A DNA stretch of 64,000 nucleotides from an uncultured Alphaproteobacteria bacterium (GTDB lineage: Bacteria; Pseudomonadota; Alphaproteobacteria; RF32; CAG-239), in contig CALXWE010000001.1 in assembly GCA_944392295.1 (NCBI GenBank), positions 67,239 to 131,238 on the forward strand, given 5' to 3'. The notes below the pieces were generated by a model. The model saw only the letters and a program-made list of their open reading frames with translations. It made no database searches and was not told where the DNA came from. A program made the position numbers and the translations under genes. Positions 33,241 to 57,888 of this stretch are shown here, one piece after another (position 1 is the stretch's first letter; every line of letters begins with the position of its first letter).

Positions 33241-33325
33241 CTAAAACCTCCGAGTTTTGGGTTGTTAAAGGGCTTTAAACGAAATCATAAACCGTTTTTT
33301 TTTTTTGCAATCAAAAAGAGTCTTT
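33241..33325 (-). promoter_or_regulatory. conserved pilin upstream element (promoter/5'UTR) with poly-T tract
   Basis: ctaaaacctccgagttttgggttgttaaagggctttaaacgaaatcataaaccg-T12-gcaa shared by 6 paralogs. Confidence 0.6.
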
Positions 33326-33357
33326 CGATATAAACTATTTTTAATTTTCTTAAATAG

Positions 33358-33984
33358 CTACTTCCACACTGCATATAATCTGCATCTTGTAGCATCATTA
33401 GCGCAATTATTACATAAGATATCAATATCATTTAATGTCATATCTTTAATACAATTATCCGATGAATTACAATATTTATTACCATAAAATCTTCCCATTA
33501 TTTGAGCATTTTCTTTATCATCAGCAGTAAATTTATCAGAAGACACATAGTACAGAATATCCATATGTTGTTTGTACATATTAAAGAGATTAAAACAAAT
33601 TTCTTTATCATTATTATTAGATGTAAAATTGTATCCTATACCAAAAGCTGTCGGATAAGCATATACCCATATACTATTTCCGAACGGATCTACTAAAATT
33701 TTCGGATTATTTACATCTAATCTGACACCATCAGGAAGAAGTCCTAGTTTATCCATTGTTTGTGCAAGAAACAATGCATCGGTAGTGGACGAAGTGTTAT
33801 TAATCTTAGGCATTAGTTGAAAAGCATTCATAAATAAGAAATTAAAGGCTTCGGCTTGTTTATTTAGCTTATATTTAAACATTGCTTTAGAGTAGCCGGA
33901 AATAGCACCGACGGAAAGTACGCCGATGATGGCTAAAACGCCGAGCATTTCGACCATAGAACGACCAAGTTCATTAAATTTCAT
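33358..33984 (-). CDS. type IV pilin-like protein, paralog 2
   Basis: Same N-terminus; divergent C-terminal domain with Cys-rich tail. Confidence 0.75.
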   Translation of the reverse strand: MKFNELGRSMVEMLGVLAIIGVLSVGAISGYSKAMFKYKLNKQAEAFNFLFMNAFQLMPKINNTSSTTDALFLAQTMDKLGLLPDGVRLDVNNPKILVDPFGNSIWVYAYPTAFGIGYNFTSNNNDKEICFNLFNMYKQHMDILYYVSSDKFTADDKENAQIMGRFYGNKYCNSSDNCIKDMTLNDIDILCNNCANDATRCRLYAVWK

Positions 33985-34066
33985 CTAAAACCTCCGAGTT
34001 TTGGGTTGTTAAAGGGCTTTAAACGAAATCATAAACCGTTTTTTTTTTTTGCAACTTTAAAAGGAA
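33985..34066 (-). promoter_or_regulatory. conserved pilin upstream element
   Basis: Same 80-bp element, T12. Confidence 0.6.
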
Positions 34067-34131
34067 AATATACCACTTAAACAAAAAACTCCCATTTTAA
34101 CGGGAGTTTTTTTGTTTAAGTAGAATAAAAT

Positions 34132-35472
34132 TTATTCCTGAACTTCGGGTAAATTACATACTCGGTCTTTTACCGTAACTTTAACACGTTTAACGCGCAT
34201 CTTGTTGGCGGAAATTACTTCGTAAATACAATAATCGTCTTCTACCTTATCACCAACTTTCGGAGCATTGCCCAAAAGGGTAAATACGTAACCGCCAATA
34301 GTGCTCTCTTCACATTCAAATTCAGGCAGTTCAAGATAATCAAAAGCATCTTCAACCAATACTTTACCGTCAAATTCACAAACCTTTTCATTTACTTTAT
34401 GAATTTCTTCCATTTCGGGAGCGTCATGTTCATCGAATATATCTCCGACCAACTCTTCCAAAATATCTTCCATAGAAAGGAGACCTGCCGTTCCACCATA
34501 CTCATCTACCACAATGGCAACATGAGTACGCTTGCGCATCATCAAGTGTAATACTTCGGAAATAGATTGATTTTCAGGTACAAACAATATCTGACGGGCA
34601 ATCTTGTTTAAACGACCTTTTTCCAACTTTTCTTCACTATGTTCCAGCAAATCACGAATATGAATCATACCCACAACATTATCTCTGTCTTTATCACATA
34701 AAGGATAACGTGTGTGTTTGGTACGCTTAACCAAACTCATTACTTCATCAAAGCTGTCGTCCAAAAACAAACATTGCATATCTTGTCTGGGTATCATAAC
34801 TTCGTGAGCATAAATTTCTGAAAAATCAACAGCATTTTGAATAATATCACGTTCGGTATCATCAATAAAACCTCCTCTTTGCGAAGCGTTAACAATTAAC
34901 TTGATTTCTTCTTCAGAGTGAGCTGAATCTTGTTCAGATGCCGGTTCAACACCGATAATATGCAAAATTTTTAAAGTCATTGTATCTAACACCCAAATAA
35001 ATGGGTAAAAAATACGCTTGAACATATATAACGGATAAGCAATCATCAAAACGAAAGTTTCGGTTTTTTGAATAGCCAAAGACTTAGGTATTAATTCACC
35101 CAACACAACGTGCAATAAAGTAATCAAACCGAAAGCAACGGCAATGCTTACCGAATGTAATAAAATCTGATTTTCTTCAAAAACTCCGCCGAACAAATCT
35201 TCAAACAAATGCGCAACTGCAGGCTCACCGATCCAACCTAGACCTAAAGAGGCAAGGGTAATACCAAGCTGAATAGCACTCAAGTAAGAGTCCAGATGTT
35301 CGGTAATTTTTAAGGCAATTTGTGCACGTTTATTACCGGAGTGTATCATTTCTTCGAGTTTTGTGCGACGAATTTTAACAATCGCAAACTCAGACACTAC
35401 GAAGAAAGCATTAAAGAAAATTAAAATTAAAACGAAAATAAAATTAAATAAATAACCATAAAGCGGATTCAT
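34132..35472 (-). CDS. HlyC/CorC-family transporter (DUF21-CBS-CorC)
   Basis: DUF21 TM region (EFAIVKIRRTKLEEM), CBS pair, CorC_HlyC C-terminus. Confidence 0.8.
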   Translation of the reverse strand: MNPLYGYLFNFIFVLILIFFNAFFVVSEFAIVKIRRTKLEEMIHSGNKRAQIALKITEHLDSYLSAIQLGITLASLGLGWIGEPAVAHLFEDLFGGVFEENQILLHSVSIAVAFGLITLLHVVLGELIPKSLAIQKTETFVLMIAYPLYMFKRIFYPFIWVLDTMTLKILHIIGVEPASEQDSAHSEEEIKLIVNASQRGGFIDDTERDIIQNAVDFSEIYAHEVMIPRQDMQCLFLDDSFDEVMSLVKRTKHTRYPLCDKDRDNVVGMIHIRDLLEHSEEKLEKGRLNKIARQILFVPENQSISEVLHLMMRKRTHVAIVVDEYGGTAGLLSMEDILEELVGDIFDEHDAPEMEEIHKVNEKVCEFDGKVLVEDAFDYLELPEFECEESTIGGYVFTLLGNAPKVGDKVEDDYCIYEVISANKMRVKRVKVTVKDRVCNLPEVQE

Positions 35473-35570
35473 TTTATATATAAAACCTATGTTGTTAAAA
35501 AAACAGCGTAGATGATATGCTTAACATATACGTTTGTCAATAGGTGATTATATTTTCAAAACCGTGTTTG

Positions 35571-37646
35571 TTATTTATGTTCCAGATTATACATCAAATT
35601 AGCGTTTTTTAAGCTGTTTTCGTTATATAAAACAGCAAAAGCTTCATCTTTGGTAAACACGGGCTCTAAGTTATAACGAATAAAGTTTTCGAGCTTGATT
35701 TCGGCATTTTTAAGATCGCTGCGTTTATAATCGGGAGCCGGACCGTTTACCGGAAGCATTAAAATATGCAAAGCATTAAGCTCATTATCGGTTATAACAT
35801 TTTTAACATCTATATCATCAAGGTGGTTCTTTTCTAAGAACAATAAATACTCATGAGCTTTTTGCAACACTTCAGGTTTATTAACTTCTTCGGGTATAAC
35901 AAAATAGTTATGACGTTTAGCCCATAATCCGAGTTTTTCTTTAGATGATAAAAATGAAAACGGAATGGATAAAATTAAGCCTACGGTAATAGGGCTCATC
36001 CACCAAAAGAGCCCGTTAGCATATTTCCAAACAACAACGGCGGTTACAATGCCGAGCAAGGTATGCCATTTATGCCGCTGCCAAGCTATTGTCCACGGAG
36101 TTCCCGTATCATCTCGGTTTTGTGATTTCCAGCCGGAATCATGACCGGTAAAAATATCCCAAACAAACTTGCTTTGAAACAGCATCATAATGGGGGCGCT
36201 CAAAGCGCTGAATATAATTTCGGCAACAACACTTTTGATTGCTCCCCAATATCCGCCGATAGTCGATGATTTATTTTGTTTAAGGTATACTACCAGTCCC
36301 AAAAACTTAGGAAAGATAAGCATAAATATTGAAAAAGCAAACATGCTGATAATGCCTATTTTATCAAAAATCGGCCAGGTCGGAAACAAGGTATAAGATT
36401 TCGGGAAATACTCCGGCGGAAAAAAGTTTCGCCCTAAAGCCACCGATAAACCTACCAACAAAAAGCACAACCACAAAGGAGAGGATAAATATGACATAAT
36501 TCCGATGGTGAAATGTACACGGCTTATGGGGTTTAGCCCTTTAGCGGTTACGATTTTTAAATGTTGCATATTTCCCTGACACCACCGTCTGTCGCGCAAA
36601 GCAAAATCAATTAAAGTAGGCGGACATTCTTCATAACTTTCGGTAAGTTCGGGCAACAACCAAGCATTCCAACCGCCGCGTCTTATAAGCGCCGCTTCTA
36701 CAAAATCGTGGCTTAATATTGGTCCGCCGAATGGAGCTTTACCTTTTAATACCGGCAATTTACAACAATCCATAAAAGCTTTGGTTCTGATAATGGCATT
36801 GTGCCCCCAGTAATTGCTATCGCCGAGCTGCCAATAAGCAAGTCCTGCCGAAACAATCGGTCCGTATACTTTTCCGGCAAACTGCTGTACTCTGGCAAAT
36901 AAAGAGTTTTTATTAATACACATCGGCGGCGCCTGAATAATACCGGTTGCCTCATTTGCTTGCATTAATTTGGTCATGGTTACTATGGTTTTTCCGGCAA
37001 GCAAACTATCGGCATCTAAAACTACCATAAAATCATAAAGAGCCCCCCACTTGCTGCAAAAATCTTCAATATTTCCGCTTTTACGGGCCGTATTTTGGGC
37101 TCTGCGGCGATAATACAAGTTCATACCTTCGGGCATATTTTCTTTTGTAGCGAGCCACACGGCTTCTTCTTTAATCCATAGATCAGGGTTGGTTGTATCG
37201 CTTAACACAAACATATCATAGTTTTGTTGTTGACCGGTAAGTTTCAAGCTTTGAGCAATCGCCGCCAAATTTGAAAATACCTCCAGAGGATTTTCGTTAT
37301 ATATCGGCATAAGAATAGCCGTTTTGGTGCTTATGCTTGAATTGTCATCCGGCCAGATAATTCCCGGAACGTTTTTACCTTTTAACAGCTCACAAAATCC
37401 AAAGATGCTCGACCAAAAAAACAATGAAATCCAGCCAAAGGTAAGTACAAACAAAACAATCATTAATACAGAGGTAAACCACGAAGCATCTGAAGGAATT
37501 ACCTCCATCCATTTAAGAGTAGAAATCAAAGTGCATAATAACGTTATTCCGAAAATTTTGACACGACGTCTTTTAATCTGCGAGGCGTTTATGGCTATGG
37601 TTTGAGGTTTCATCGTTACATTCTTTCTTACGTTTTTATTGCTCAA
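35571..37646 (-). CDS. opgH: glucans biosynthesis glucosyltransferase H
   Basis: GT2 core with DADS, RRWCQGN motif, multiple TM. Confidence 0.85.
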   Translation of the reverse strand: MSNKNVRKNVTMKPQTIAINASQIKRRRVKIFGITLLCTLISTLKWMEVIPSDASWFTSVLMIVLFVLTFGWISLFFWSSIFGFCELLKGKNVPGIIWPDDNSSISTKTAILMPIYNENPLEVFSNLAAIAQSLKLTGQQQNYDMFVLSDTTNPDLWIKEEAVWLATKENMPEGMNLYYRRRAQNTARKSGNIEDFCSKWGALYDFMVVLDADSLLAGKTIVTMTKLMQANEATGIIQAPPMCINKNSLFARVQQFAGKVYGPIVSAGLAYWQLGDSNYWGHNAIIRTKAFMDCCKLPVLKGKAPFGGPILSHDFVEAALIRRGGWNAWLLPELTESYEECPPTLIDFALRDRRWCQGNMQHLKIVTAKGLNPISRVHFTIGIMSYLSSPLWLCFLLVGLSVALGRNFFPPEYFPKSYTLFPTWPIFDKIGIISMFAFSIFMLIFPKFLGLVVYLKQNKSSTIGGYWGAIKSVVAEIIFSALSAPIMMLFQSKFVWDIFTGHDSGWKSQNRDDTGTPWTIAWQRHKWHTLLGIVTAVVVWKYANGLFWWMSPITVGLILSIPFSFLSSKEKLGLWAKRHNYFVIPEEVNKPEVLQKAHEYLLFLEKNHLDDIDVKNVITDNELNALHILMLPVNGPAPDYKRSDLKNAEIKLENFIRYNLEPVFTKDEAFAVLYNENSLKNANLMYNLEHK

Positions 37647-38049
37647 TGGACTGAGGTTTCATTGCCTGATAATGATATTGCGGCGCGTTTACGACATATG
37701 ATTTACGCATTTTGGCGATTAAATCTTCGGGAAGCTGAAGCTTTTTAAGATTGTCTGTCGAACAACATTTAGCACCTTTACACTTTAAAAAGCACAATTT
37801 GAATTGTGCCAAAAGCTGATTATCCTCAAGAGGTGATGGACTAAAAATACGCTTAGCTTGTTTGGTTAAAATATCATCAATAAATTGCACAATTTTATCG
37901 GCATCTTGAATAGGCACGTTTTGCAGTTTACCTAAAATAGTCTCGGTAACAATCACCAGTCTTTCTTTTTCAAAGCCGAAGCTTTTAAGATAGGCTTTTA
38001 TTATATCTTCTTTACTTTGAATTTTTACGGCAACCATTGATAACTCCAA
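37636..38049 (-). CDS. hypothetical protein between opgG and opgH
   Basis: 137 aa, CFLKCKGAKCC motif; overlaps both neighbours. Confidence 0.4.
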   Translation of the reverse strand: MELSMVAVKIQSKEDIIKAYLKSFGFEKERLVIVTETILGKLQNVPIQDADKIVQFIDDILTKQAKRIFSPSPLEDNQLLAQFKLCFLKCKGAKCCSTDNLKKLQLPEDLIAKMRKSYVVNAPQYHYQAMKPQSIEQ

Positions 38050-39599: not shown

Positions 39600-39775
39600 A
39601 AAAACCTCCTTATTATATTTTCCGACACCAACGACAATAGAAACTAAAATTTTTCTAAAGTCAAGAGTATGTATTACAGATATGATAATAATAGATGTTT
39701 ATTTATACCAAGGGGGTGTTATTTTTAGATATACAATTATATATAAGGGCGACACATTAAAATCGGAGAATTTAC

Positions 39776-42700
39776 ATGCAAAATCGACGTCCTGTTTTTT
39801 ATATATTTTTAATTTTTTACTTTATTGGTTTTCCATATTCATCATATGCAATTACAACAATAATTGAAGCAGGAGAGACCGTAAACGGCGGAGATGTTAA
39901 TTCCGTTGTTACGCAAAAGGTATACGGAGAAGCCGATAATTTTACGGTATTGGGAACACAGCAGGTTATGAGCGGAGGCATCACAAAGAACAGTAATTTA
40001 TATCCTTACGGTACGCAGGAAGTTATGTCAGGTGGAACATCTTATAATACTAATTTACAGTATTCGTCAGTTCAGAGAATTTACGGCACATCTTACGATA
40101 CCACCATTGCCTCCCGAGCATCGGCTAACGTTTACGGCGGCGGTTTGGCGGAAAGTACGGTTTTAAACGGAGGTTCTTTTTATGTTTTGAGCGGAGGTAC
40201 GGCAGAAAGCAGTACCATTAACTTCGGTCACGGATATGTGTCGGGAACGGATAGTAATACTACGGTTAAGGGCGGAATTTGGGAAATAAGGAGCGGCGGT
40301 AAATCTGATGGGGCTGTTATAAGCGGAGGAGAACAACAGGTAGATTCCGGGGGAAGTGCCACAAATTCCACAATTAACAGCGGAGGATTACAAGAGGTAT
40401 ACGGTACGGCACAGGGGTCCATGGTACAAGGCGGAGTTTTGAAAGTAATAGACAGCGGCAGTATAGAAAACACCACATTAAATAGCGGAAGGATAGATGT
40501 CGGTTCGGGAACATCGGCAACCGGGACCGTGGTAAACGGCGGAACGGAATATGTATACGGAAGCGATACGCAAAGTACCATAAACGGCGGATTACAATAT
40601 GTGGGAAGCAGCGGTACGGTTATGAATGTAATATTGCAGAATCAAGGATCTCAGAGTGTTTACGGTACGGCAAACAATGTAACGGTGCAAAATGGCGGAG
40701 TGCAAAATGTCAGATACGGAGGTGTCAGTAATAATACCACATTGTTAAGCGGTGGGGTACAAAATGTTACGGGCACGGATAACAATGCGGTTATTAACGG
40801 AGGCACGCAGACGGTGGAAAGTGACGGTATAGCCAACGGCACGACATTAAACGGCGGAAACCAAAAGGTATTCGGTACGGTCAATAGTGTTAATATTAAA
40901 GGTGGAATACAGAATATATTAAGCGGCGGTCTGTCAAGCGGAAGTACCGTAAACGGCGGAGAGATGATGGTTGCAAGCGGAGCAACGGCTGAAAATACGG
41001 TCTTAAATACTGGAAGTGAGCTGGTATACGGTACGGATAATAATGCCGTTATTAACGGGGGCACACAGACGATAGAAAACGGCGGTATAGCAAGCGACAC
41101 AACGCTAAACGGCGGCGAGCAGGTAGTATTATCTGGAGCAACGGTAAACAATGCAAGCATCAACGGGGGCACGCAGGAAGTATCGGGCACGGTAAACGGC
41201 ACGAATATCAAAGGCGGAGTGCAGAGTATTTTGAGTGGCGGTGTTGCAAGCGGAAGTACCGTAAACGGCGGAGAGATGATGGTTGCAAGCGGAGCAACGG
41301 CTGAAAATACGGTCTTAAATACTGGAAGTGAGCTGGTATACGGTACGGATAACAATGCGGTTATTAACGGGGGCACGCAGACGATAGAGAGCAGCGGTAT
41401 AGCGAACGGCACAACGCTAAACGGCGGCGAGCAGATAGTATTATCTGGAGCAATAGCTAAAAACAGCAAGTTACAAGGAGGAACTTTAACTTTGTACAGT
41501 GGCGGAAATCTTGAGGGAATAACCAATGTCACCAATGCAGTTATGAATATTTCAGGAAGTAATGATATATCTTCTCTCAATGTTAGCAATTCTCAAATCA
41601 ATTTTTTAAGAGATTCCGGTTTTAGTACTCTTAATATAGAAAACTTAAATGGTAGCGGTACCTTTAATTTAAGTAGTAATTTAGCAGATGATGAGTCGGA
41701 TATTTTAAATATCACCAACGGGAACGGTAATTTTGGTCTGATTATTCACGATTATAGCTATGAAGGAAATTTACCCTCAAGCTTTAAGGTTATTAACGAA
41801 GCTTCAGCCACTGATGATTTTTACTTAATCGGCGGGGCTGTAGACGTAGGAGCATATGAGTATGAATTACAATATGACGGTAATGATTGGGTATTGGTAA
41901 GAACTCCAAATCTTACAGAAAGCGCGATCATTGCCAAAAACACATATACTTCACTTTCATCGGTTTTTTACAGTATGCTGACACCTGTATATAATCGTAT
42001 AAAAAGTAACAGAAGAAATGGCAGCCCTGAACACAATTTATGGTTCAAAGGCATTGGTCATGAAGTTAAGCTCAATTACAAAGATGATACAAAGAGCCGT
42101 TTACAGATTTATGGCGGAGCTTTAGGGTATGATAAGAATATTTGGCAAAGTGGCGGCAATAGCTTAAAATTAGGATTTTTTGGCAGTTATGCTTATTCCC
42201 ATCAAGATTACGATCGTCAAGGTCGAGGTCATGCCGATACGCAAAACTTTGGCTTATATGCCGGAATATTGACTAATAATAATTGGTTTTTAGATATCGC
42301 GGGCACCTATTTTATGCATGATCAAAGAGTACAAAGTTATACTCCGGCCATGTATGAAGTTATCGGAAAGTATAACACCAACGGCTGGCACGGAGCTGTA
42401 TTTATAGGTCGCAGAGTTGACCTTGCCAAAGATTGGTATATTGAGCCTAATTTAGGTTTTAACTACATTCATGTTGAGGGTATTGATTACCGAACCAATT
42501 TCAACACCTTAGTAACGGCCGATGATATGGATTACATGAATGCTCAAATAGGTAGTAATATTGGCAAGGGAGTAGAATTGGCGGAAGATACTAAGCTTAA
42601 TATTTTCGGAAGCTTTAATCTGATACATGATTGGGACGGAAAAAGTACGGTTCAAGTAGCAAACTACACATTTAATGAGGACATATCTTCGGTGCGCTAT

Positions 42701-42829
42701 GAACTGGGAATTGGTCTGGAAGCAATAAAAACAGATAAGGGCAATGCATACATAGAAGCAACCACCCAACTAGGCAATCGTGTCAAGATGCCCTGGGAGA
42801 TAAATTTAGGTGTAAGTTTTGCTTTTTAA
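39776..42829 (+). CDS. autotransporter with repetitive passenger domain and C-terminal beta-barrel
   Basis: Signal peptide; ~19-aa GG..V.G repeats; C-terminal ...GVSFAF terminal aromatic. Confidence 0.8.
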   Translation: MQNRRPVFYIFLIFYFIGFPYSSYAITTIIEAGETVNGGDVNSVVTQKVYGEADNFTVLGTQQVMSGGITKNSNLYPYGTQEVMSGGTSYNTNLQYSSVQRIYGTSYDTTIASRASANVYGGGLAESTVLNGGSFYVLSGGTAESSTINFGHGYVSGTDSNTTVKGGIWEIRSGGKSDGAVISGGEQQVDSGGSATNSTINSGGLQEVYGTAQGSMVQGGVLKVIDSGSIENTTLNSGRIDVGSGTSATGTVVNGGTEYVYGSDTQSTINGGLQYVGSSGTVMNVILQNQGSQSVYGTANNVTVQNGGVQNVRYGGVSNNTTLLSGGVQNVTGTDNNAVINGGTQTVESDGIANGTTLNGGNQKVFGTVNSVNIKGGIQNILSGGLSSGSTVNGGEMMVASGATAENTVLNTGSELVYGTDNNAVINGGTQTIENGGIASDTTLNGGEQVVLSGATVNNASINGGTQEVSGTVNGTNIKGGVQSILSGGVASGSTVNGGEMMVASGATAENTVLNTGSELVYGTDNNAVINGGTQTIESSGIANGTTLNGGEQIVLSGAIAKNSKLQGGTLTLYSGGNLEGITNVTNAVMNISGSNDISSLNVSNSQINFLRDSGFSTLNIENLNGSGTFNLSSNLADDESDILNITNGNGNFGLIIHDYSYEGNLPSSFKVINEASATDDFYLIGGAVDVGAYEYELQYDGNDWVLVRTPNLTESAIIAKNTYTSLSSVFYSMLTPVYNRIKSNRRNGSPEHNLWFKGIGHEVKLNYKDDTKSRLQIYGGALGYDKNIWQSGGNSLKLGFFGSYAYSHQDYDRQGRGHADTQNFGLYAGILTNNNWFLDIAGTYFMHDQRVQSYTPAMYEVIGKYNTNGWHGAVFIGRRVDLAKDWYIEPNLGFNYIHVEGIDYRTNFNTLVTADDMDYMNAQIGSNIGKGVELAEDTKLNIFGSFNLIHDWDGKSTVQVANYTFNEDISSVRYELGIGLEAIKTDKGNAYIEATTQLGNRVKMPWEINLGVSFAF

Positions 42830-42830
42830 T

Positions 42831-45440: not shown

Positions 45441-46055
45441 TTATCTGAAGGTAATGTATAATAAACATTGAGAAGATTCGCAAAAGCTACATCTATCATA
45501 AATATCGCTTATTTGCATATCTTTAAGACATACTACATTTTTTGTGCACCCAACATCTCCATATATGCGTGTAGACCATTCGTTATCTTTATCATCATAG
45601 TCGTTTCTAAAAAAAATAGTGCTAATGGCGCTATGATTTTCTTTGGCGGTAGTTATAATGTTTATACACTGTTCCATAGAAGAGTGAGAAGCATCAATAT
45701 AATATATAATTCCCAAATAGTTTGTCTCGTGGTAGTAGATACTCATTTCCGTTTTAAAAACATCAGATATTCGGCTTAAATTTGAAGTAAGCATGTCCTC
45801 AGGTATTTCGCCCAATTTATTAAGGTAAGGTATCAGGTTATTTTGTCCGCTAGCTGCTCCTGTTTTTATCCGTAAGTCATTTAGGTATCTAATACAAGCA
45901 TTGATAATGGTGTTGGCTTGTTCAGCCTGTTTATTAAGTTTATACTTCATCATAGCTTTAGAGTATCCGGAGATAGCACCGACGGAAAGAACGCCGATAA
46001 TGGCAAGAACGCCGAGCATTTCGACCATAGAGCGCCCAAGTTGATTAAATTTCAT
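45441..46055 (-). CDS. type IV pilin-like protein, paralog 3
   Basis: MKFNQLGRSMVEMLGVLAIIGVLSVGAISGYSKAMMKYKLNKQAE. Confidence 0.75.
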   Translation of the reverse strand: MKFNQLGRSMVEMLGVLAIIGVLSVGAISGYSKAMMKYKLNKQAEQANTIINACIRYLNDLRIKTGAASGQNNLIPYLNKLGEIPEDMLTSNLSRISDVFKTEMSIYYHETNYLGIIYYIDASHSSMEQCINIITTAKENHSAISTIFFRNDYDDKDNEWSTRIYGDVGCTKNVVCLKDMQISDIYDRCSFCESSQCLLYITFR

Positions 46056-46136
46056 TTAAAAACCTCCAAAGTTTGGGTTGTTAAAGGCATTTAAACGAAA
46101 TCATAAACCGTTTTTTTTTTTTGCAACTTTAAAAGG
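46056..46136 (-). promoter_or_regulatory. conserved pilin upstream element
   Basis: T12 tract. Confidence 0.6.
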
Positions 46137-46163
46137 AATTGTATCCAAATATATTCATATTAG

Positions 46164-46811
46164 CTAAAAATCTTCTTTATTGGTCAGATTATCGTAACGT
46201 TTATGGATACATTCGATTGCGGTTTTATGTACGCCTTTGGTAATGCTGTAAAATATAAATCTACCGTCACGGCGGCAAGAAACGAAACCGTCATCGCGTA
46301 ATCGCTTCAAATATTGTGATGTTTTAAGCTGATTGCAATCAATACCTTCCATAATTTGCGAAACGTTGCTTTCTCCGTTAAAATACAAAAATTCTAAAAT
46401 CCGCATTTTATCAAAATTGGCAAATAGCTTTATTTGGTTAGCGACCATATTGGTATAATCCTTGGGCAGCATTGCCTTAAATCCGTCGGCCAAATAGTGA
46501 AAATCATTGGCCATATAACCAAAGAGTTTGCGCAAACAAGTAAATAAACTTGCCGGATATTCTTCATGAATTTTGTAGTAAATAAATATACCGTGCCTTT
46601 CGGTTGTAACTAAACTGGCATCTCTTAGTTTTCGTAAACTTTGGGATACAAACACTTGCTCTGCTCCGATTCCTTTAGTTATAGCTGAAACAGATGAAGC
46701 TCCGTTTACATCTAAAAATTCTAAAATTCTAAGCCGCAAAGGGTGCGAAATGTAAGAAATACCCAAGGCGGCTTTTTTCATAGTTTCTACAGGCAGTTGT
46801 TTTGTATTCAT
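46164..46811 (-). CDS. transcriptional regulator with two tandem ArsR/SmtB-like winged-HTH domains
   Basis: HPLRLRILEFL...LRKLRDASLV and DKMRILEFL...LKRLRDDGFV; RBS-supported ATG at MNTKQ. Confidence 0.6.
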   Translation of the reverse strand: MNTKQLPVETMKKAALGISYISHPLRLRILEFLDVNGASSVSAITKGIGAEQVFVSQSLRKLRDASLVTTERHGIFIYYKIHEEYPASLFTCLRKLFGYMANDFHYLADGFKAMLPKDYTNMVANQIKLFANFDKMRILEFLYFNGESNVSQIMEGIDCNQLKTSQYLKRLRDDGFVSCRRDGRFIFYSITKGVHKTAIECIHKRYDNLTNKEDF

Positions 46812-46959
46812 TTTGTTTTCCTTTATACATTGATAGTACAATATATATCAAAACTGTAATTTATTGCAAATAAAAAATAAACATATTTGCTAATTGAATT
46901 TTAACAAACTTTGCATATTATGAAGTAAAAAATTACGTAATTTATACAAGGTAGATAAT

Positions 46960-48291
46960 ATGAAAATAAAAAATTTACTTATAGGCTTATTGTGCATTAT
47001 CAGCTTTCCTGCGCATGCCGAATTGGAGATAGACATTACTGGAGCTATGCGAGAACCGATGCCGATAGCTTATCCTAAAATGATAAACGATGGCAAAGCC
47101 ATGGGTTTATTCGGAGTAGGAATGTATGCCGATAGGATTCGCGACGTTGTTATGGCCGACTTAGACCGCAGCGGATTATTCAGAGTTATAGATGACGGCA
47201 GTTACATTGAAGATTTAACTTCAATAAATCAGCGACCCAATTTTATAGATTGGCAGGCAATAAAAGCCCATGCTTTAGTACAAAGTGCGGTGCAAGAAAC
47301 AACCGACGGTAAATTAAAAGTAGAACTACGCTTATGGGATGTTATGAGCGGCGAGCAGTTGCAAGGACAATCGTATTCTACAAGTAAAGATAACTGGCGT
47401 CGCATAGCCCATATTATTGCCGATACGATTTATGAGAGATTAACCGGTGAAAAAGGTTATTTTGATACACGCGTTGTTTATGTTTCGGAAAGCGGACCGG
47501 CAACTCGTAGGGTAAAACGCTTGGCAATTATGGATCAAGATGGCGAAAATCACCGTTTTTTAACATCAGGTACCTCAATGGCTTTAACTCCGCGTTTTTC
47601 ACCTAATATGCAAAAAGTAACTTATTTGTCATTTTCAGGTTCTGCACCTAAAGTGTATATTTTAGATATTGAAAGCGGTAAACAAGAGTTGGTAGGTCAT
47701 TTTCCGGGTATGACGTTTGCTCCGGTATTTTCGCCCGACAGTTCTAAATTGTTGCTGTCTTTTGCAGCCAACGGTAATACTGAGATTTATGAGATGGATT
47801 TAAAAAATCGTACCAGCCGTCAGTTAACCAAAAATCCGGCGATTGATACATCACCGAGTTACTCGCCGGACGGCAAACAAATCGTATTTAACTCCGACAG
47901 AGGCGGCAATCAACAACTTTACGTTATGGACGCTGACGGCTCCAATGTAAAGAGAATAAGTTTCGGCAACGGTCGTTATGCAACGCCGGTATGGTCTCCC
48001 CGAGGCGATTACATAGCCTTTACCAAAATGGCGGGAGGACAGTTTTACATCGGAGTTATGCATCCTGACGGCAGCGGCGAAAGATTGCTGGCCAGCGGTT
48101 ATTTGGTAGAAGGTCCGACCTGGTCGCCGAACGGACGTGTGTTAATGTTCTTCCGTCAAGATAGGGGAACGGCACGTAAGAATGCTCCGGTCAGATTGTA
48201 TACAATAGACTTAACCGGCTACAATGAACGTATGGTAGTAACTCCGGCCGAAGGTTCGGATCCGGCATGGTCTCCGTTGTTGCCGCAATAA
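46960..48291 (+). CDS. tolB: Tol-Pal system beta-propeller protein TolB
   Basis: Signal peptide, repeated SPDG/WSP propeller blades. Confidence 0.9.
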
Positions 48292-48304
48292 TGAGGCCTG
48301 ATTA

Positions 48305-48916
48305 TTATCGCCAAATGATATATAAGCCCCACCATGTGGTATCTTCATTAAATATGCTGCACAGCTCTTCGGCTTTGGCAAGAGTTAAATTGCGCAAACA
48401 TTTATCTTCGGAACTACAATACTTATCACCCCGCAGGCCTGATGCCAATAATTGAGGGCCGTCAGTTATATAATTTAGGAAAATGGAATTTATATCGGCA
48501 TGAAATTCTTTGGCAATCATATATAGATTGCGGCATTGGGTGGTGTTTCCGGCAGAATCTAAATTGACATTAATACCTACATATCCGGTATTGTGATGAT
48601 ATATCCAGTAGCGATTCTTGAACACATCCTCAATTTGATCTTCCACGTTGGCAATATACATCTCTTTGGGGATCTCATTTAGTTTTTTCAAAATAGGGAT
48701 TAAACTGAAAGCATCGGTGGAACCGTCGTTAATCATTAAATCTTTATAATAACGGGCAACGGTACTGATAATAGTATTTATTTGCTCGGTCTGCTTGTTG
48801 AGTTTGTACTTAAACATCGCCTTCGAGTAACCGGCAATCGCGCCGACGTAAAGTACCCCGATAATCGCCAGCACGCCCAGCATCTCAACCATAGAACGCC
48901 CTCTTTCTTGCATCAA
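48305..48916 (-). CDS. type IV pilin-like protein, paralog 4 (variant N-terminus MMQERG|RSMVEML)
   Basis: Same hydrophobic N-domain. Confidence 0.7.
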   Translation of the reverse strand: MMQERGRSMVEMLGVLAIIGVLYVGAIAGYSKAMFKYKLNKQTEQINTIISTVARYYKDLMINDGSTDAFSLIPILKKLNEIPKEMYIANVEDQIEDVFKNRYWIYHHNTGYVGINVNLDSAGNTTQCRNLYMIAKEFHADINSIFLNYITDGPQLLASGLRGDKYCSSEDKCLRNLTLAKAEELCSIFNEDTTWWGLYIIWR

Positions 48917-48992
48917 AAAACTCCTTAGAATACGTAAAAATCATCACTTTCGCGTCATTCTAAACCGTTTTTTTTTGCAACTTTAAAATGCG
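48917..48992 (-). promoter_or_regulatory. divergent copy of pilin upstream element (T9 tract)
   Basis: Only the aaaccg-T9-gcaactttaaaa core conserved. Confidence 0.5.
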
Positions 48993-49048
48993 GGTGGGGT
49001 ATGGCGTAAGGCTAATGCCGACAAGCATAGCCAAAAGATAAAGCCGGT

Positions 49049-49477
49049 TTAAAAGATTTCATGCAGATACATACTGTGTGGAAAAATAAAAATATGCACA
49101 AAGAGCCATACAAAAGAAAAAACACGGGCAAACCAAACAATCCGATTTTTTTGATTATAAATCCACCAGCCGAGCAACACCATCAGATTATCACAAATCA
49201 ATCGGTTGCTCCAATGTTCCACGCCTTGCAGCCAAAAAGCAACAGCTTGACCGCCGAGGCCGATCTCCAGATAATGCTCCAAAGTTTCCCACATATAGGC
49301 CGCCAAAAGGGTTAAAATAAAGCTGATGCGCAATTTCAAACGGTCGGAAACATCTTCATCACCGACAATTTTTTTTGTCATCCATGCCGCAAAACAGGCC
49401 ACGGATATCCCCATGATGATATGCTCAATTGACCAAACGTCAAAAGATGCTTCTGTTTTTAATCCCCACCAAACCAT
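49049..49477 (-). CDS. hypothetical membrane protein
   Basis: 4 TM segments. Confidence 0.45.
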   Translation of the reverse strand: MVWWGLKTEASFDVWSIEHIIMGISVACFAAWMTKKIVGDEDVSDRLKLRISFILTLLAAYMWETLEHYLEIGLGGQAVAFWLQGVEHWSNRLICDNLMVLLGWWIYNQKNRIVWFARVFSFVWLFVHIFIFPHSMYLHEIF

Positions 49478-49668
49478 AGAATAAAAAATTCCTGAAACGA
49501 TATGTCGGCTTAATTGTTATGAATAAGACTTTTAATTTTTTTCTTAAAGTTTGTCAACAAATATAAAAGAAAAGCACAGAATTTACGGCAAGTTTTTTTA
49601 TAACTTGACTTTTGAGCTAAAAAACGCAACAGTATGGTAGTTTATGCAACTAAAAATCGGAAAAAACA

Positions 49669-50430
49669 ATGGTGAAATTATCTGTTTATATTGTAACCTT
49701 AAATGAAGAATTACGCTTAGAAAGAACCTTAAAAGCCGCTTCTAAAGTCGCTGATGAAATTGTTATTGTCGACAGCGGCAGTACGGATAAAACGGAGGCT
49801 ATTGCCAAGAAATACAAGGCCAAGTTTCTTTTTCATAAATGGAAAAACATTTCTTCACAAAAGCATTTTGCTCAAAACAAATGCAAGAATGATTGGGTGC
49901 TTTCTTTGGATTCGGATGAAGTTTTATCTGATGAGCTGATTAAAGAAATCAATCAACTCAAAAAAGCACCGCAAGCAGATGCGTATAAAGTTAAAATTCG
50001 TGATATGCTTCCCGGAGATGTTAAGCCCCGGTTGTTTGCCAAGAGCTATAATCAAGTTCGTTTGTATAACCGAAACAAAGCCAATATGCCCGATGATTTA
50101 ACTCATGACAGGGTAGTGCTTGGACCGGATTGTTCGGTTATAGAGCTTAAAAACATTATTCACCACTATTCGTATGTGTCTTTGACACAGTTATGGTTTA
50201 AGCTTAATATGTATACCGATGAGTTGGTACATACGGCTGTGGTAAAAAACAAGAAGTATTCACGCTTACGGCTTTATACGGAAATGCCGCGCCAGTTTTT
50301 GTTTTACTATTTTGTACGTCGCTATTGTATGTATGGAACGTGCGGTTTCTGGATGGCAACATCGTATGCTTATTTCCGCTTTTTAAAGATAGCCAAGTGG
50401 TTTGAGTATCAAGCTTTGCATAAAAAATAA
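49669..50430 (+). CDS. glycosyltransferase family 2 (LPS-core-type), tandem paralog 1
   Basis: LSVYIVTLNEE...IVIVDSGSTD...SLDSDE (DxD). Confidence 0.75.
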   Translation: MVKLSVYIVTLNEELRLERTLKAASKVADEIVIVDSGSTDKTEAIAKKYKAKFLFHKWKNISSQKHFAQNKCKNDWVLSLDSDEVLSDELIKEINQLKKAPQADAYKVKIRDMLPGDVKPRLFAKSYNQVRLYNRNKANMPDDLTHDRVVLGPDCSVIELKNIIHHYSYVSLTQLWFKLNMYTDELVHTAVVKNKKYSRLRLYTEMPRQFLFYYFVRRYCMYGTCGFWMATSYAYFRFLKIAKWFEYQALHKK

Positions 50431-50439
50431 GATTTTTAG

Positions 50440-51213
50440 ATGATAAAGTTATCTGTTTATATCATAACCTTTAATGAAGAGCAACGCCTGGAAAAAACCT
50501 TAAAGGCAGCATCCAAAGTGGCAGATGAAATTGTTGTCGTGGATAGCGGCAGTACCGATAAAACACTTGAGATTGCAAAAAAACATAAAGCAAAGGTTAT
50601 ACAGCATAAATGGGAGACTTATTGTAAGCAAAAATCTTTTGCCGAAAAGCAGTGTACCAATGATTGGGTTTTGATGCTAGATGCCGATGAGGTTTTATCA
50701 GACGAACTGATTAAGGAAATTAAAATCTTAAAGCGTCATGAACCGCCTTTTAAGGCTTATAATATCAAAATTTGCAATATGTTTTTGCAAGATAAAAAGC
50801 CGCGTTTATTTGCTCAAAGTTTTAATGTAGTACGACTTTATAATCGCCAGTTTGCTCATATGCCGCCGGATTTGTATAATAAAGACAGAGTTAGAGTAAA
50901 TGAAGGAGAAAAAGTAGGTCAACTGCAAGGTAAAATTCATCATTATTGTTTCTTTAGCTTAGAGCAGGCAACTTCAAAGTACAACTTGCACAGTTTAGAG
51001 CTTGTGCATACGGCAATAGCTGAAAATCGACGATTTTCGCGATTGCGACTATATACGGAATTTCCGCGTCAGTTTTTGCATTATTATTTCATTAAACGGT
51101 ATTGTTTGCTAGGGACGCAAGGTTTTATTCAGGCAATGTTTTTAGCAAACTTCCGCTTTTTAAAAATAGCCAAGTGGTTTGAAAGCCAAAAACCGCACAA
51201 AGAATACAAATAA
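50440..51213 (+). CDS. glycosyltransferase family 2, tandem paralog 2
   Basis: Paralog of preceding gene. Confidence 0.75.
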   Translation: MIKLSVYIITFNEEQRLEKTLKAASKVADEIVVVDSGSTDKTLEIAKKHKAKVIQHKWETYCKQKSFAEKQCTNDWVLMLDADEVLSDELIKEIKILKRHEPPFKAYNIKICNMFLQDKKPRLFAQSFNVVRLYNRQFAHMPPDLYNKDRVRVNEGEKVGQLQGKIHHYCFFSLEQATSKYNLHSLELVHTAIAENRRFSRLRLYTEFPRQFLHYYFIKRYCLLGTQGFIQAMFLANFRFLKIAKWFESQKPHKEYK

Positions 51214-51276
51214 TATTTTTGTTCAACAAACAAAAAAGGCTCGCTAAAGCGAGCCTTTTTTAGATAAGCAATAAGC

Positions 51277-52107: not shown

Positions 52108-52215
52108 TTTATATTTTCCTTTTGCGTTTTAAAAAAATTAATATAAATTAATGCTAAGAGGATATTTATCCAATAATGTTGGTTTTGTAAACAATTTTTT
52201 TAAAGAAGAAGAAAA

Positions 52216-53127: not shown

Positions 53128-53197
53128 AAAATAGTTCTTGCAAACAGAACAAAAATAGAACATAAGAGTTAATAGTAACAATAAAAGGAAAGAAAAC

Positions 53198-54226
53198 ATG
53201 GAGAAAGATAAAGCCCTTGATGCGGCATTAAGCCAAATAGAAAGAGCCTTTGGTAAAGGTTCAATCATGCGCTTAGGTCAAAGCACCAATATAGATATTG
53301 AGGCTATTTCGACCGGTTCTTTGGGAATTGATATTGCCTTAGGTATCGGAGGATTGCCCAAAGGACGTATAGTTGAAATATATGGTCCGGAAAGTTCCGG
53401 TAAAACAACTTTGGCATTAAGCGTAATTGCTCAAGCTCAGAAAAAAGGCGGAACTTGTGCCTTTATAGATGCCGAGCACGCTTTGGATCCGTCTTATGCC
53501 AAGAAGATTGGTGTAGATATTGAAAACTTGCTGATATCTCAGCCTGATGCCGGTGAACAAGCTCTGGAAATTGCCGATACATTGGTAAGATCAGGAGCTA
53601 TTGACGTGTTGGTAGTAGACTCGGTTGCCGCCTTAGTACCTAAGGCCGAGTTGGAAGGTGAAATGGGAGATTCGCACATGGGCTTGCAAGCTCGTTTAAT
53701 GAGCCAAGCTTTAAGAAAGCTAACATCAACGGTATCTCGCTCCAATACCTTAATTATATTCATTAACCAGATTCGTATGAAAATCGGTGTAATGTTTGGC
53801 AATCCCGAAACCACGACCGGTGGTAACGCCTTAAAGTTCTACGCTTCGGTTAGAATGGATATTCGCCGTATCGGAGCTATTAAGGACAAAGACGATGTAA
53901 TCGGCAGTCAGACACGAGTTAAAATTGTTAAAAACAAGGTAGCTCCTCCGTTTAAGACGGTAGATTTTGACATTATGTACGGTGAGGGCATATCCAAAAC
54001 CGGTGAATTGATAGATTTGGGCGTTAAAGCCGGCATAGTAGAAAAATCGGGAGCATGGTTCTCTTATAAAGGTGAAAAACTCGGTCAAGGCAGAGAAAAT
54101 GCTAAGTTATATTTAAGAGATAATCCGAGTGTTGCTGAAGAAATTGAAAGCAAAATCAGAGCCGATGCCGGTCACTTAACGACCGAAATGATAGGCGATG
54201 ATGAACCTATTGAAAGCGAAGATTAA
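53198..54226 (+). CDS. recA: recombinase RecA
   Basis: GPESSGKTT Walker A, full-length conservation. Confidence 0.97.
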
Positions 54227-54318
54227 GTATTAAATAAGTCTTAGGCAGAACGTATAATTAAGCCCCGCAAATTTGCGGGGCTTAATTATTACGATAGCAA
54301 CAAACTGCTGAGTATGCG

Positions 54319-54957
54319 TTAAATCCACAAGATGTTAATCCATGAACGTTTACCATCTAAATCGGCACATATATCACCGATTTTAGTTAAGGTTAAATCT
54401 CTTAAACATGAATTTTTAGATGTGTTGCAATACTTATCGCCGTAATACTCATATAGGGAACCGCCGTTACCTACCTGAGGCGTAACTTTCCATAAATCGG
54501 CGTGCATTTGCTGTACAACGGTTAAAATATTTTGGCATGAGTTGAAATCAACATACGAGTTAGCAATTATATTGTTATCGTGTTCAACAGTAAGCCGAAA
54601 ATAACCATCGCCATAAGCATTTCCCTCTCTAACCCAATATAGTAGTATTAAATTGCCCATAGCATCTTCAAATCCCTGATTTCTATACACCTCATTAGCA
54701 GGAATAAGCCCTAGCTTGTACATAACAGGAACTAAATATGTAAAAGAAGAACTAACATTTTGTGCATTAAATTCAGGGCGATTATACAACTCGAAGGCAT
54801 TATATATAAGGGTTGATATTTGCTCGGCTTGTTTATTAAGTTTATACTTCATCATTGCCTTTGAGTAGCCGGAAATGGCGCCGATAGATAAAACGCCAAT
54901 GATAGCAAGAACGCCGAGCATTTCGACCATAGACCGCCCAAGTTGACTAAATTTCAT
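54319..54957 (-). CDS. type IV pilin-like protein, paralog 5
   Basis: MKFSQLGRSMVEMLGVLAIIGVLSIGAISGYSKAMMKYKLNKQAE. Confidence 0.75.
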   Translation of the reverse strand: MKFSQLGRSMVEMLGVLAIIGVLSIGAISGYSKAMMKYKLNKQAEQISTLIYNAFELYNRPEFNAQNVSSSFTYLVPVMYKLGLIPANEVYRNQGFEDAMGNLILLYWVREGNAYGDGYFRLTVEHDNNIIANSYVDFNSCQNILTVVQQMHADLWKVTPQVGNGGSLYEYYGDKYCNTSKNSCLRDLTLTKIGDICADLDGKRSWINILWI

Positions 54958-55040
54958 CTAAAACCTCCAAAGTTTTATTTGTTAAAGGACTTTAAACGAA
55001 ATCATAAACTGTTTTTTTTTTTTGCAACTTTAAAAGGAGC
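54958..55040 (-). promoter_or_regulatory. conserved pilin upstream element (T13 tract)
   Basis: Same element. Confidence 0.6.
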
Positions 55041-55181
55041 AATGTCCCCAAAGAATAAGCGATGTAAATAAAATTTAGAAAAATACAAAAAAAATTAAAT
55101 AGGCTATTGCTTAATGGTATTTGGCTACCTATATAACCCTTTAGAAAAAAGTTTTTTACTAATAAAATAAAAGGATTAGTC

Positions 55182-57104
55182 ATGAGTAATAAAGTTATAG
55201 GTATAGATTTAGGTACAACAAACTCCTGCTTTGCCGTTATGGATGGTGGAGAAGCTAAGGTTTTGGAAAACTCTGAAGGTGCTCGTACCACACCTTCAAT
55301 GGTTGCTTTTACCGACAATGAACGTCTGGTCGGCGCGGCTGCTAAACGTCAGGCTGTTACCAATGCCGAAAACACATTGTTTGCTATTAAACGTTTAATC
55401 GGTCGTCGTTACGATTCTCCGGAAGTCCAAAAAGATAAAGCTACCGCTCCGTTTAAAATCGTTGAAGGCGATAACGGTGATGCTTGGGTTGAAGTTAAAG
55501 GTCAAAAATATGCTCCTTCACAAATTTCAGCCATGGTTTTGCAAAAAATTAAAGAGTATGCAGAAAGTTATTTAGGTGAAAAGATTGAAAAAGCAGTTAT
55601 TACCGTTCCTGCATATTTTAACGACTCACAACGTCAGGCAACAAAAGATGCCGGTAAGATTGCCGGATTAGACGTATTGCGTATCATTAACGAGCCGACG
55701 GCCGCTGCATTGGCTTACGGTTTGGATAAAAAAGCCTCCGGCACGATTGCTGTTTACGACTTAGGTGGTGGTACGTTTGATATTTCTATTTTGGAAATCG
55801 GTGATGGCGTATTTGAAGTTAAATCAACTAACGGTGATACGTTCTTGGGTGGTGAAGATTTCGACCAGAGGATTGTTAACTACTTGGCTGATGAATTCAA
55901 AAAAGATACCGGTATTGATTTGAAAACCGATAAGTTGGCTTTGCAACGCTTGAAGGAAGCTGCCGAAAAGGCCAAAATTGAATTGTCTTCTGCAACTCAG
56001 ACTGATGTAAACTTGCCGTTTATTACAGCTGATGCAACCGGTCCTAAACACTTAAACATCAAATTAACTCGTGCCAAATTAGAATCTTTGGTAGATGATT
56101 TGATTGACAGAACCGTAGCTCCTTGTGAGAAGGCTTTGGCCGATGCCGGATTAAAAGCCAGCGACATCAGTGAAGTCATCTTGGTTGGTGGTATGACTCG
56201 TATGCCGAAAGTACAAGAAAAAGTAAAAGAGATTTTCGGTAAAGAACCGCATAAAGGTGTAAACCCGGATGAAGTAGTTGCCGTCGGTGCCGCTATTCAA
56301 GGTGGTGTATTGATGGGCGATGTTAAAGATGTATTGCTGCTTGATGTAACTCCGTTGTCATTAGGTATTGAGACTTTGGGTGGTGTATTTACTCGTTTGA
56401 TTGATAGAAACACGACCATTCCGACCCGTAAGTCGCAAGTATTCTCAACAGCCGAAGACGGACAAACGGCAGTAACCATTAGAGTCTTCCAGGGTGAACG
56501 TGAAATTGCCGCCCACAACAAACTGTTAGGTCAGTTTGACTTGGTAGGTATTCCGCCGGCACCGCGTGGTATGCCGCAAATTGAGGTTACCTTTGATATT
56601 GATGCCAACGGTATTGTAAACGTATCAGCTAAAGATAAGGCAACCGGCAAAGAGCAGGCCATTCGTATTCAAGCCTCGGGCGGTTTGTCTGATGCCGATA
56701 TTGAAAAGATGGTAAAAGATGCCGAAGCTAACGCCGAAGCTGATAAGAAGAAAAAAGAAGAAGTTGAAGCTCGTAACCAAGCCGAAGCTTTGATGCACTC
56801 TACCGAGAAGACATTAAAAGAAAATGCCGACAAAGTAAGTGCCGCCGATAAGACTGCTATTGAAGAGGCTATTGCTGCTTTGAAGACAGCCTTGGAAGGT
56901 ACTGATGTTAACGCCATTAAAGAAAAGAGCGATGCCTTAATGCAAGCTTCATTAAAATTGGGTGAAGCTATGTATAAAGCTCAAGGTGCTGCCGGAGCCT
57001 CCACGGCCGGAGCGACCGGAGCCGAGAGCGGAACTCAAGGTTCAAACGCTAACAACGGCGGAGACGACAAAGTAGTTGATGCCGACTACGAAGAAGTTAA
57101 GTAA
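55182..57104 (+). CDS. dnaK: molecular chaperone DnaK
   Basis: [19 protein letters not shown] motifs, full length. Confidence 0.97.
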
Positions 57105-57194
57105 TCAAAGAGCTTAGCTTACAAAAACCCCCATCGTTAAAAACGATGGGGGTTTTGATATAAAGCTTTTTTCCAAGTAATTATTGAAGCAAAT

Positions 57195-57800
57195 TTATTT
57201 TATTCTCAATTTTAGATGAGAATCTTCTTTATTAATATGTTCAGCACATAAATTATCTATTTCAGACATGGTTAAATCAACTAAGCATTTACTGTTGTTT
57301 GTACAGTATTTATCGCCATAGACATTACTAATTGCTTCATCTTCATTTCCATAGTTACTAAGAGAAGATACGACATAAATATCTTCATGAAACTCTTTCA
57401 CAATAGTAAAAAATTGACGACATACAGTCAGAGATTGGTCTGAATTATCAATTTTTAACAAACAATAAAGAGTGTCTCCGGTACTTTCAGAAGTTATTTG
57501 TACTTTATTTCCAAAAATATCGTAAACATAACTGTTGTCATTTTTAATCATTTCTGTTGGAATTAGATTTAATTTTATATAAGTACCAGTTATATCATAA
57601 TATTTTCCTGATGGGGTGATTTTTCCCACATATTCAACCATTGATGCAATAATTTGCCGATACTGTGCTGACATTTTATTTAGCTTATATTTCATCATTG
57701 CCTTGTTATAGCCGGAGATAGCACCTACTGATAATACTCCGATAATTGCGAGTACTCCTAACATCTCGACCATAGAGCGTCCAAGTTGATTAAATTTCAT
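57195..57800 (-). CDS. type IV pilin-like protein, paralog 6
   Basis: Same N-terminus. Confidence 0.75.
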   Translation of the reverse strand: MKFNQLGRSMVEMLGVLAIIGVLSVGAISGYNKAMMKYKLNKMSAQYRQIIASMVEYVGKITPSGKYYDITGTYIKLNLIPTEMIKNDNSYVYDIFGNKVQITSESTGDTLYCLLKIDNSDQSLTVCRQFFTIVKEFHEDIYVVSSLSNYGNEDEAISNVYGDKYCTNNSKCLVDLTMSEIDNLCAEHINKEDSHLKLRIK

Positions 57801-57888
57801 CTAAAATCTCCAAAGTTTGGGTTGTTAAAAAGCTTTAAACGAAATCATAAACCGTTTTTTTTTTTTGCAACTTTAAAAGGAATTATAT
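57801..57888 (-). promoter_or_regulatory. conserved pilin upstream element (T12)
   Basis: Same element. Confidence 0.6.

Follow-up and report, generated by a model that had tools for sequence, protein, structure and literature searches.

The window analysed here, a 64,000-nucleotide (nt) stretch of contig CALXWE010000001.1 from an uncultured alphaproteobacterium (38% G+C), carries six genes for type IVb-like prepilins, and upstream of each lies a homopolymeric tract that reads as T on the plus strand and as A on the coding (minus) strand. The prepilin encoded at 57195–57800 (minus strand) begins with the leader MKFNQLG, followed by RSMVEML..., with Glu at +5; its five paralogs, on the same strand, occupy 32617–33240, 33358–33984, 45441–46055, 48305–48913, and 54319–54957. 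Every paralog is a complete gene of about 200 codons with its own ribosome-binding site and putative −10 box, and the genes lie dispersed, one at a time, between housekeeping genes; the window open reading frames also encode TolB, OpgG/H-like proteins, a probable autotransporter, RecA, DnaK, and ThrRS. This gene content is consistent with a diderm, probably alphaproteobacterial, host, and DnaK resembles that of Alphaproteobacteria. No gene for a prepilin peptidase, assembly ATPase, platform protein, or secretin was seen among the window open reading frames examined. As to the scale of the family, six pilin genes are found here in 25 kb, and one metagenome assembly has at least 11 copies of the promoter in its contigs.

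The six pilins share a near-invariant N-terminus (MKFNQLG/RSMVEMLGVLAIIGVLSVGAISGYSKAMMKYKLNKQAEQ) and have a variable C-terminal domain with conserved cysteines. As in a prepilin, G7 (at the cleavage position), E12, and positions 7–46 are invariant or nearly so among 31 sequences. The predicted model contains a hydrophobic N-terminal helix at residues 6–57 and an alpha/beta pilin fold like that of solved type IVb pilins. Compared with the type IVb pilins TcpA, CofA, and PilS, however, sequence similarity is marginal, and the leader is short (5–7 residues), as is typical of type IVa pilins. One paralog scored 21 bits against the Pfam family PilS, below the cut-off of 22; the other five had no match in Pfam, and a TcpA profile (PDB) matched at E = 0.037. 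At a threshold of E < 1e-5, the pilin family has 4698 homologs, including one labelled 'Alphaproteobacteria bacterium'.

There are six long T-runs on the plus strand of the window, five of 12 nt (T12) and one of 9 nt (T9), the latter belonging to a divergent paralog; the distance from tract to ATG is 54–55 nt. On the coding strand, the A12 tracts lie in the putative promoter spacers of their genes at 33295–33306 (pilin 32617–33240), 34039–34050 (33358–33984), 46111–46122 (45441–46055), 55012–55023 (54319–54957), and 57855–57866 (57195–57800), and the A9 tract lies at 48968–48976, 5′ of the divergent pilin at 48305–48913. An earlier, sequence-only reading had counted these runs by eye, and its counts held for T9 and for the four T12 runs that start at 33295, 34039, 46111, and 57855; the run that it gave as 13 nt at 55011–55023 is T12 at 55012–55023, base 55011 being a G (context aaacTg). 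The same reading had called the tract variable in length. From the window alone this claim is weakened, because the canonical copies are all 12 nt and only the divergent paralog has 9; between assemblies it stood, in the form of one-base differences (see below).

The frequency of A/T runs was compared with that expected from a first-order Markov model trained on the remainder of the window. Runs of at least 9 nt occur in the 64 kb at the six pilin-promoter tracts only, so that outside the pilin promoters none was observed against 11.8 ± 3.4 expected, and the five runs of at least 12 nt all occupy the homologous promoter position (0.66 expected). Runs of at least 8 nt are strongly depleted over the whole window (10 vs. 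30 expected). Because runs of at least 9 nt are absent elsewhere, with 11.8 expected, the genome appears to avoid long homopolymers save at these six homologous sites. The occurrence of the tract at pilin promoters is not a matter of chance.

The putative promoter element around the tract

The sequence-only reading had placed the tract between a TTGCAA-like and a TATGAT-like hexamer on the coding strand, and an alignment confirmed these flanks in all six copies. The −35-like hexamer, a palindromic TTGCAA, lies on the minus strand at 33305–33310, 34049–34054, 46121–46126, 48975–48980, 55022–55027, and 57865–57870; the −10-like TATGAT lies on the same strand at 33284–33289, 34028–34033, 46100–46105, 55001–55006, and 57844–57849, with TAGAAT at 48957–48962 as its counterpart in the A9 copy. 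TTGCAA consists of TTGC and the first two A of the tract, so the hexamer reaches into the tract at its 5′ end, and in the window copies the −10-like hexamer begins 5 nt past the tract end. Canonical copies read CCTTTTAAAG-TTGC-A12-CGGTT-TATGAT-TTCGTTTAAAG...TTTAAC...GGAG-N7-ATG on the coding strand, the copy at 55012 having the filler CAGTT in place of CGGTT. In full, the conserved upstream element reads CCTTTTAAAGTTGC-A12-CGGTTTATGATTTCGTTTAAAG...TTTAAC...GGAG-N7-ATG in the canonical copies (57801–57880, minus strand) and is predicted to comprise a promoter, a leader of roughly 40 nt, and a ribosome-binding site. In the divergent A9 copy, TTTTAAAG-TTGC-A9-CGGTT-TAGAAT is kept and the leader is unrelated; the core that it shares with the canonical form is TTGC-A(n)-CGGTT-TAnnAT. 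The distance from TTGC to TAGAAT in the A9 copy is just 14 nt, against a modal 17 nt, and the A9 promoter is probably weak or silent.

In silico, each gene's putative promoter has the repeat between its −10 box and its −35-like hexamer (or an activator site). The element of pilin 57195–57800 is preceded by a terminator-like hairpin (57905–57941, minus strand) that belongs to the upstream gene pepA and would make this pilin an independent transcription unit in need of its own promoter. As judged from sequence, TAnnAT is a good −10 box and TTGCAA is −35-like, and both hexamers are assigned a promoter role on that basis. A sigma-70 consensus scan with spacers of 16–18 base pairs (bp) did not call the pilin promoters, because their spacer is 15 bp. 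In 53 other upstream regions, taken from the window organism and its relatives, TTG[AC]NN-N-TANNNT pairs peaked at spacers of 16–17 bp (13 matches), versus 2 matches at 15 bp. We regard the promoter assignment as reasonable but non-canonical; with a 15-bp geometry, TTGC could contact either sigma or an activator.

The predicted transcription start and early leader contain an imperfect palindrome, GTTTAAAG(N3)CTTTAAC, at 57815–57835, which is conserved in the canonical copies and might act as an operator or fold into a small hairpin in the leader. A CtrA box (TTAA-N7-TTAAC) was rejected in this leader, which is one base short and reads TTAA-N6-TTAAC.

Tract length and spacing across assemblies

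The same loci were retrieved from many independent metagenome assemblies by exact-protein look-ups, and a protein-profile scan added 80 loci. The samples in which they were found include ERZ28614864, ERZ24773507, ERZ24773555, ERZ17292904/5, and ERZ1034928, and the runs ERR4096465, ERR4096468, ERR4096636, and ERR4096638. An exact-pattern scan of genome contigs for the element gave just three chance matches in unrelated taxa, and a scan of JGI metagenomes for CRGTTTATGATTTCGTTTAAA gave no match. The tract was found in two promoter lineages. That of the window has the form TTGC-A(n)-CGGTT-TA(T/A/G)(G/A)AT and includes pilins just 40–45% identical to those of the window; the second has the form GGACTCGTAAATA-TTGC-A(n)-CGCGAGC-TAAAAT, with TAAAAT or TAATAT as the −10 at equal distance from TTGC, the sole upstream element kept across both lineages. 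The tract is missing altogether from other branches of the family (leaders MKQNQFG... and MKVSQFG...). At the modal length, TTGC lies 17 nt from TAnnAT in both lineages (12 + 5 vs. 10 + 7), the shorter tract of the second being offset by a longer filler (7 vs. 5 nt). These compensating fillers bear out the earlier proposal that tract length sets promoter spacing.

Paralogs of the window differ at 4–8 of 45 leader positions and at 18–39 of the first 138 coding nt (13–28% of sites), all keeping A12, and two further promoters of the same type as the A9 copy (P0089 and P0020) also have A12. Since the spacing is compensated between lineages and A12 is kept despite the divergence of paralogs, the length of the tract, i.e., the spacing, appears to be under stabilising selection. 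The homopolymer was uninterrupted in about 63 tracts, apart from those on two artefact-like contigs (L015 and L047).

Upstream of the tract, GACTC lies exactly 7 nt 5′ of TTGC in every second-lineage promoter, in the window copy at 33295 (33321–33325, minus strand), and in P0089 and P0020 (contigs with the motif include L043–L051 and L133); four of the six window copies lack it. GACTC conforms to GANTC, the type of site methylated by CcrM in Alphaproteobacteria. A sigma-54 promoter (GG-N10-GC) was rejected, as the window's lineage lacks the GG and that of the second lineage lies 13 nt upstream, not 10. Likewise rejected was a sigma-28-like element, TAAAGTTG-N11-aaCGgTtt, which matches in part and is kept neither in all copies nor in the second lineage.

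Tract lengths were counted as locus × sample observations from consensus contigs. In the window's lineage, the length was 12 in 24 observations, 11 in 5, and 13 in 3; in the second lineage it was 10 in 23, 9 in 5, and 11 in 1. The A9 paralog had 9 in all four independent samples. Among individual loci, the tract at 33295 was A12 in six other assemblies and A11 in L028, that at 34039 was A12 in four of four assemblies, that at 46111 was A12 in three and A11 in another three (L005, L007, and L008), and that at 55012 was A12 in L019 and L022 and A13 in L020 and L021. The recurrence of off-mode lengths at one locus across independent assemblies, as for A11 and A13 here, argues against random miscalls. 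Compared with the rest of the genome, the tract is hypervariable in length: the A12 tract differed in 8 of 23 comparisons, and control runs in the same alignments differed in 2 of 596 (6 nt), 1 of 175 (7 nt), and 0 of 61 (8 nt), or 3 of 832 together, these controls being 6–8-nt runs in low-coverage assemblies for which no control of equal length exists.

Six locus pairs had no single-nucleotide polymorphism (SNP) over 1–6 kb, and three of them differed in the tract alone (L019/L021, 12 and 13; L046/L050, 12 and 13; L028/L032, 11 and 12). Paralogs also differed within one sample. The tandem pilin pair on contig L028 has tracts of 12 and 11, and in metagenome ERZ1034928 two of the 11 second-lineage copies are at 9 and the remainder at 10. 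The sequence-only reading had proposed stochastic, independent ON/OFF switching of each paralog; tracts such as those of L028 do vary independently, and the free ON/OFF part fits poorly with a spread of one base around a dominant mode. At the locus of the 46111 tract, L009 (about 2920–2950; cf. window 46111–46170) has a 49-nt deletion in which TTGC and the upstream block are lost along with nine A residues of the tract. L009 comes from a more divergent strain, whose pilin allele is left without a promoter.

Two contigs, L015 (40–75) and L047 (8470–8500), were left out as probable artefacts. In both, A-rich sequence beside the tract stands in place of TTGC and the bases around it (GTTGC -> ATAAA), probably because bases after a homopolymer are miscalled where coverage is low or a contig ends. 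Contigs L010, L011, L052, and L063 start inside the tract, which may be a weak hint of mixed tract lengths within a population, and L016–L018 and L036–L040 begin no more than a few bases from the pilin ATG; metagenome assemblies thus break systematically at pilin loci, where the tract lies in a repeated block of promoter and N-terminal sequence.

Proposed transcriptional tuning by the spacer tract, and alternatives

Tract position, conserved spacing, purity, and length polymorphism between samples and paralogs were all observed. With moderate confidence, we favour a model in which the A-tract is a promoter spacer that is held at an optimum length, is prone to slippage, and tunes the transcription of each pilin paralog independently. 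Each paralog would have its own promoter, with a pure A-tract filling most of the TTGC(AA)-TAnnAT spacer, and selection would keep the length that places TTGC exactly 17 nt from the −10 (A12 plus 5 nt, or A10 plus 7 nt). In an uninterrupted homopolymer of 10–12 nt, replication slippage would add or remove one A, outpacing point mutations. Each one-base step would shift the −10 by one base pair relative to TTGC, in distance and in rotational phase, and should turn the transcription of the given paralog down (or up) independently of the others. All paralogs would usually sit at the optimum length; the promoter-deleted L009 allele and the A9 copy (14 nt, not 17) are probably stably off. That one-base steps should change the output of a paralog, we infer by analogy with porA, hif, fim, vlp, and sabA (see below), and the resulting variation may be used adaptively. 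Because the spread is narrow and the mode dominant, we prefer graded adjustment around a default in which every paralog is on to free independent ON/OFF switching, with the tract as a plausible expression dial.

The class of mechanism is well known, homopolymer-spacer phase variation having been described in Neisseria, Bordetella, Haemophilus, Helicobacter, and Mycoplasma; the novelty lies in the gene family and host lineage concerned and in an A-tract spacer whose length is compensated. To our knowledge, repeat-driven phase variation is essentially undescribed in the class Alphaproteobacteria and in commensal lineages. In Mycoplasma hyorhinis, as PMC10502178 relates from Citti & Wise (1995), a poly-A tract lies in the promoter of each member of the vlp surface-protein family. 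Like vlp, the pilins form a surface-protein multigene family of separate transcription units, each with a conserved 5′ region that contains pure poly-A, and, as in vlp, the gain or loss of an A would affect each paralog separately. Unlike vlp, which encodes lipoproteins of a mollicute, they are type IVb-like pilins of a diderm host, and their spread is one base, with most paralogs at one length; ON/OFF switching of the pilins is hypothetical. The vlp tracts are about 17–20 nt long, compared with 10–12 nt in the pilin promoters.

In Neisseria meningitidis porA, opc, and fetA, poly-G or poly-C occupies the −35/−10 spacer, as do TA repeats in the promoter spacer of Haemophilus influenzae hifA/hifB (PMC3899988). 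The pilin promoters share with them a simple repeat between −35- and −10-like elements, in which a one-unit change would, as in those genes, alter transcription via spacing. Those repeats are of G/C or dinucleotides, with graded or ON/OFF expression demonstrated and wide length ranges among isolates, whereas the pilin promoters have an A/T tract, a narrow range, and a 15-bp modal spacer if TTGCAA is the −35. Bordetella pertussis fim2 and fim3 carry a promoter C-tract (Willems et al. 1990, as cited in PMC3899988). They too are paralogous fimbrial or pilin subunit genes in which a homopolymer 5′ of the −10 sets the distance to an upstream contact, with poly-C there and poly-A here. For Bordetella fim this contact is the site of the activator BvgA, and the C-tract lies between that site and the −10. 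The T-tract 'rheostat' of the Helicobacter pylori sabA promoter gives graded, multiphasic output in one-base steps, not strict ON/OFF (PMC4081817). With an A/T homopolymer beside core promoter elements, sabA is the best fit to the narrow spread seen here; the pilin tract, in contrast, is located within the spacer and deviates from the mode by no more than one base.

Several points weigh against the tuning model. All five canonical window tracts have the same length (12), about 75–80% of observations are at the mode, and none is more than one base off, the fixed A9 excepted; classical contingency loci have wider spreads and mixed ON/OFF states among paralogs. A/T tracts are in general less mutable than G/C tracts, most assemblies have a coverage of 3–10×, and L015 and L047 indicate that artefactual base calls are possible at this homopolymer. 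The TTGCAA-TATGAT spacer, at 15 bp for the modal length, also lies outside the canonical sigma-70 range of 16–18 bp. The main rival is that the A-tract is a fixed-length structural spacer, either rigid and AT-rich or a site for an architectural protein, and that one-base differences are neutral, mildly deleterious, or assembly errors. It would accommodate the identity of the five canonical copies, the dominant mode and conserved total spacing in both lineages, the fixation of A9 in four samples, and the low coverage with artefact-like calls in L015 and L047. If spacing alone mattered, however, interrupted tracts would be safer, and none was found in about 63; off-mode lengths are the consensus in 20–30% of populations and repeat at the same locus in independent samples, zero-SNP haplotypes differ in the tract alone, and long homopolymers are otherwise purged from the genome. 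We regard a purely structural spacer as a serious but rather unlikely explanation. The non-canonical 15-bp spacing, unlike the 16–17 bp found 5′ of other genes here, points to another alternative, in which TTGC and the upstream GACTC-N7 form a non-sigma-70 contact for an activator or an alternative sigma and the tract sets its phasing to the −10. In the activator version slippage would still modulate expression, solely when the activator is present. An activator-dependent promoter would explain both the 15-bp geometry and the conserved GACTC-N7-TTGC, whose 7-nt distance is fixed in the second lineage, the copy at 33295, P0089, and P0020, and an ArsR-like tandem winged-helix gene adjoins pilins at two loci. 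GACTC is nevertheless missing from four of the six window copies, the activator itself is hypothetical, and as to an alternative sigma the sigma-54 reading fails and the sigma-28-like match is partial; we think this explanation unlikely, and note that its activator-dependent version, as in Bordetella fim, is compatible with the tuning model.

Two other explanations carry much less weight. The element might mainly be a boundary for recombination or gene conversion that shuffles pilin cassettes, with the tract as a passenger, since the pilin of the 55012 tract has a different upstream gene in L022, with the junction exactly at CCTTTTAAAG, the A9 paralog is present or absent between strains, and many contigs break at the element. 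The paralogs, however, are complete genes with their own ribosome-binding sites and −10 boxes, not silent cassettes, and recombination would not explain why the tract is pure, why spacing is compensated between lineages, or why lengths change by one base, which makes this account improbable. T12 on the plus strand does resemble a terminator tail, yet an intrinsic terminator acting here on transcription from the opposite direction seems to us next to impossible: no G+C-rich hairpin precedes the run on the plus strand, scans called no plus-strand terminator at three tracts, and the plus-strand sequence to the left of each tract is pilin antisense.

Returning to the tuning model, we propose more tentatively that a large type IVb-like pilin family of uncultured gut Alphaproteobacteria possesses a gene-by-gene poly-A spacer contingency switch that generates combinatorial variation of the pilus surface, with an unusual 15-bp A-tract spacer in which optimum length and mutability are both selected. 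If the tract tunes transcription, the pilus surface could vary combinatorially without recombination. Such variation would bear on host immune recognition, phage receptor evasion, and colonisation, and would bring a new bacterial class, as well as type IVb-like pilins, into the known range of homopolymer-spacer phase variation.

Neighbouring genes and other features of the window

Directly 5′ of pilin 45441–46055 lies a minus-strand gene (46164–46841) for an ArsR/MarR-like protein with two winged-helix domains, and a homolog is found 5′ of the P0020 pilin at another locus (L133, 1–26). This protein may be a regulator of the pilins. The A9 pilin and an adjoining gene for a 142-residue membrane protein (48305–49477) form a strain-variable island beside tolB (cf. 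L005 and L007–L009), and other strains have a gene of 420 codons at this site instead. In L022 (1–430; cf. window 55024–55120), the homolog of pilin 54319–54957 follows a different upstream gene, and the position of the junction at the 5′ edge of the element suggests recombination there.

Elsewhere in the window, a prophage-like block (2187–24650) adjoins a tRNA gene (2187–2259, minus strand) and contains a gene for the terminase large subunit (4096–5418), followed by about 20 kb of same-strand open reading frames without Pfam matches. Two closely similar genes for family-2 glycosyltransferase-like proteins of 253 and 257 residues (49669–50430 and 50440–51213) form a tandem duplicate. The gene at 39776–42829 encodes a protein of 1017 residues with a highly repetitive passenger region rich in Gly, Thr, Ser, and Asn and a beta-barrel-like C-terminal end, which is probably an autotransporter; its length varies by strain, with 1017 residues in L004, 1035 in L007, and 1139 in L005. 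Lastly, one of the three short-run differences among the 832 control comparisons is a T6/T7 polymorphism between strains, at position 2179 of L004, in the intergenic region between tolB and the ArsR-like gene (window about 46870–46960).

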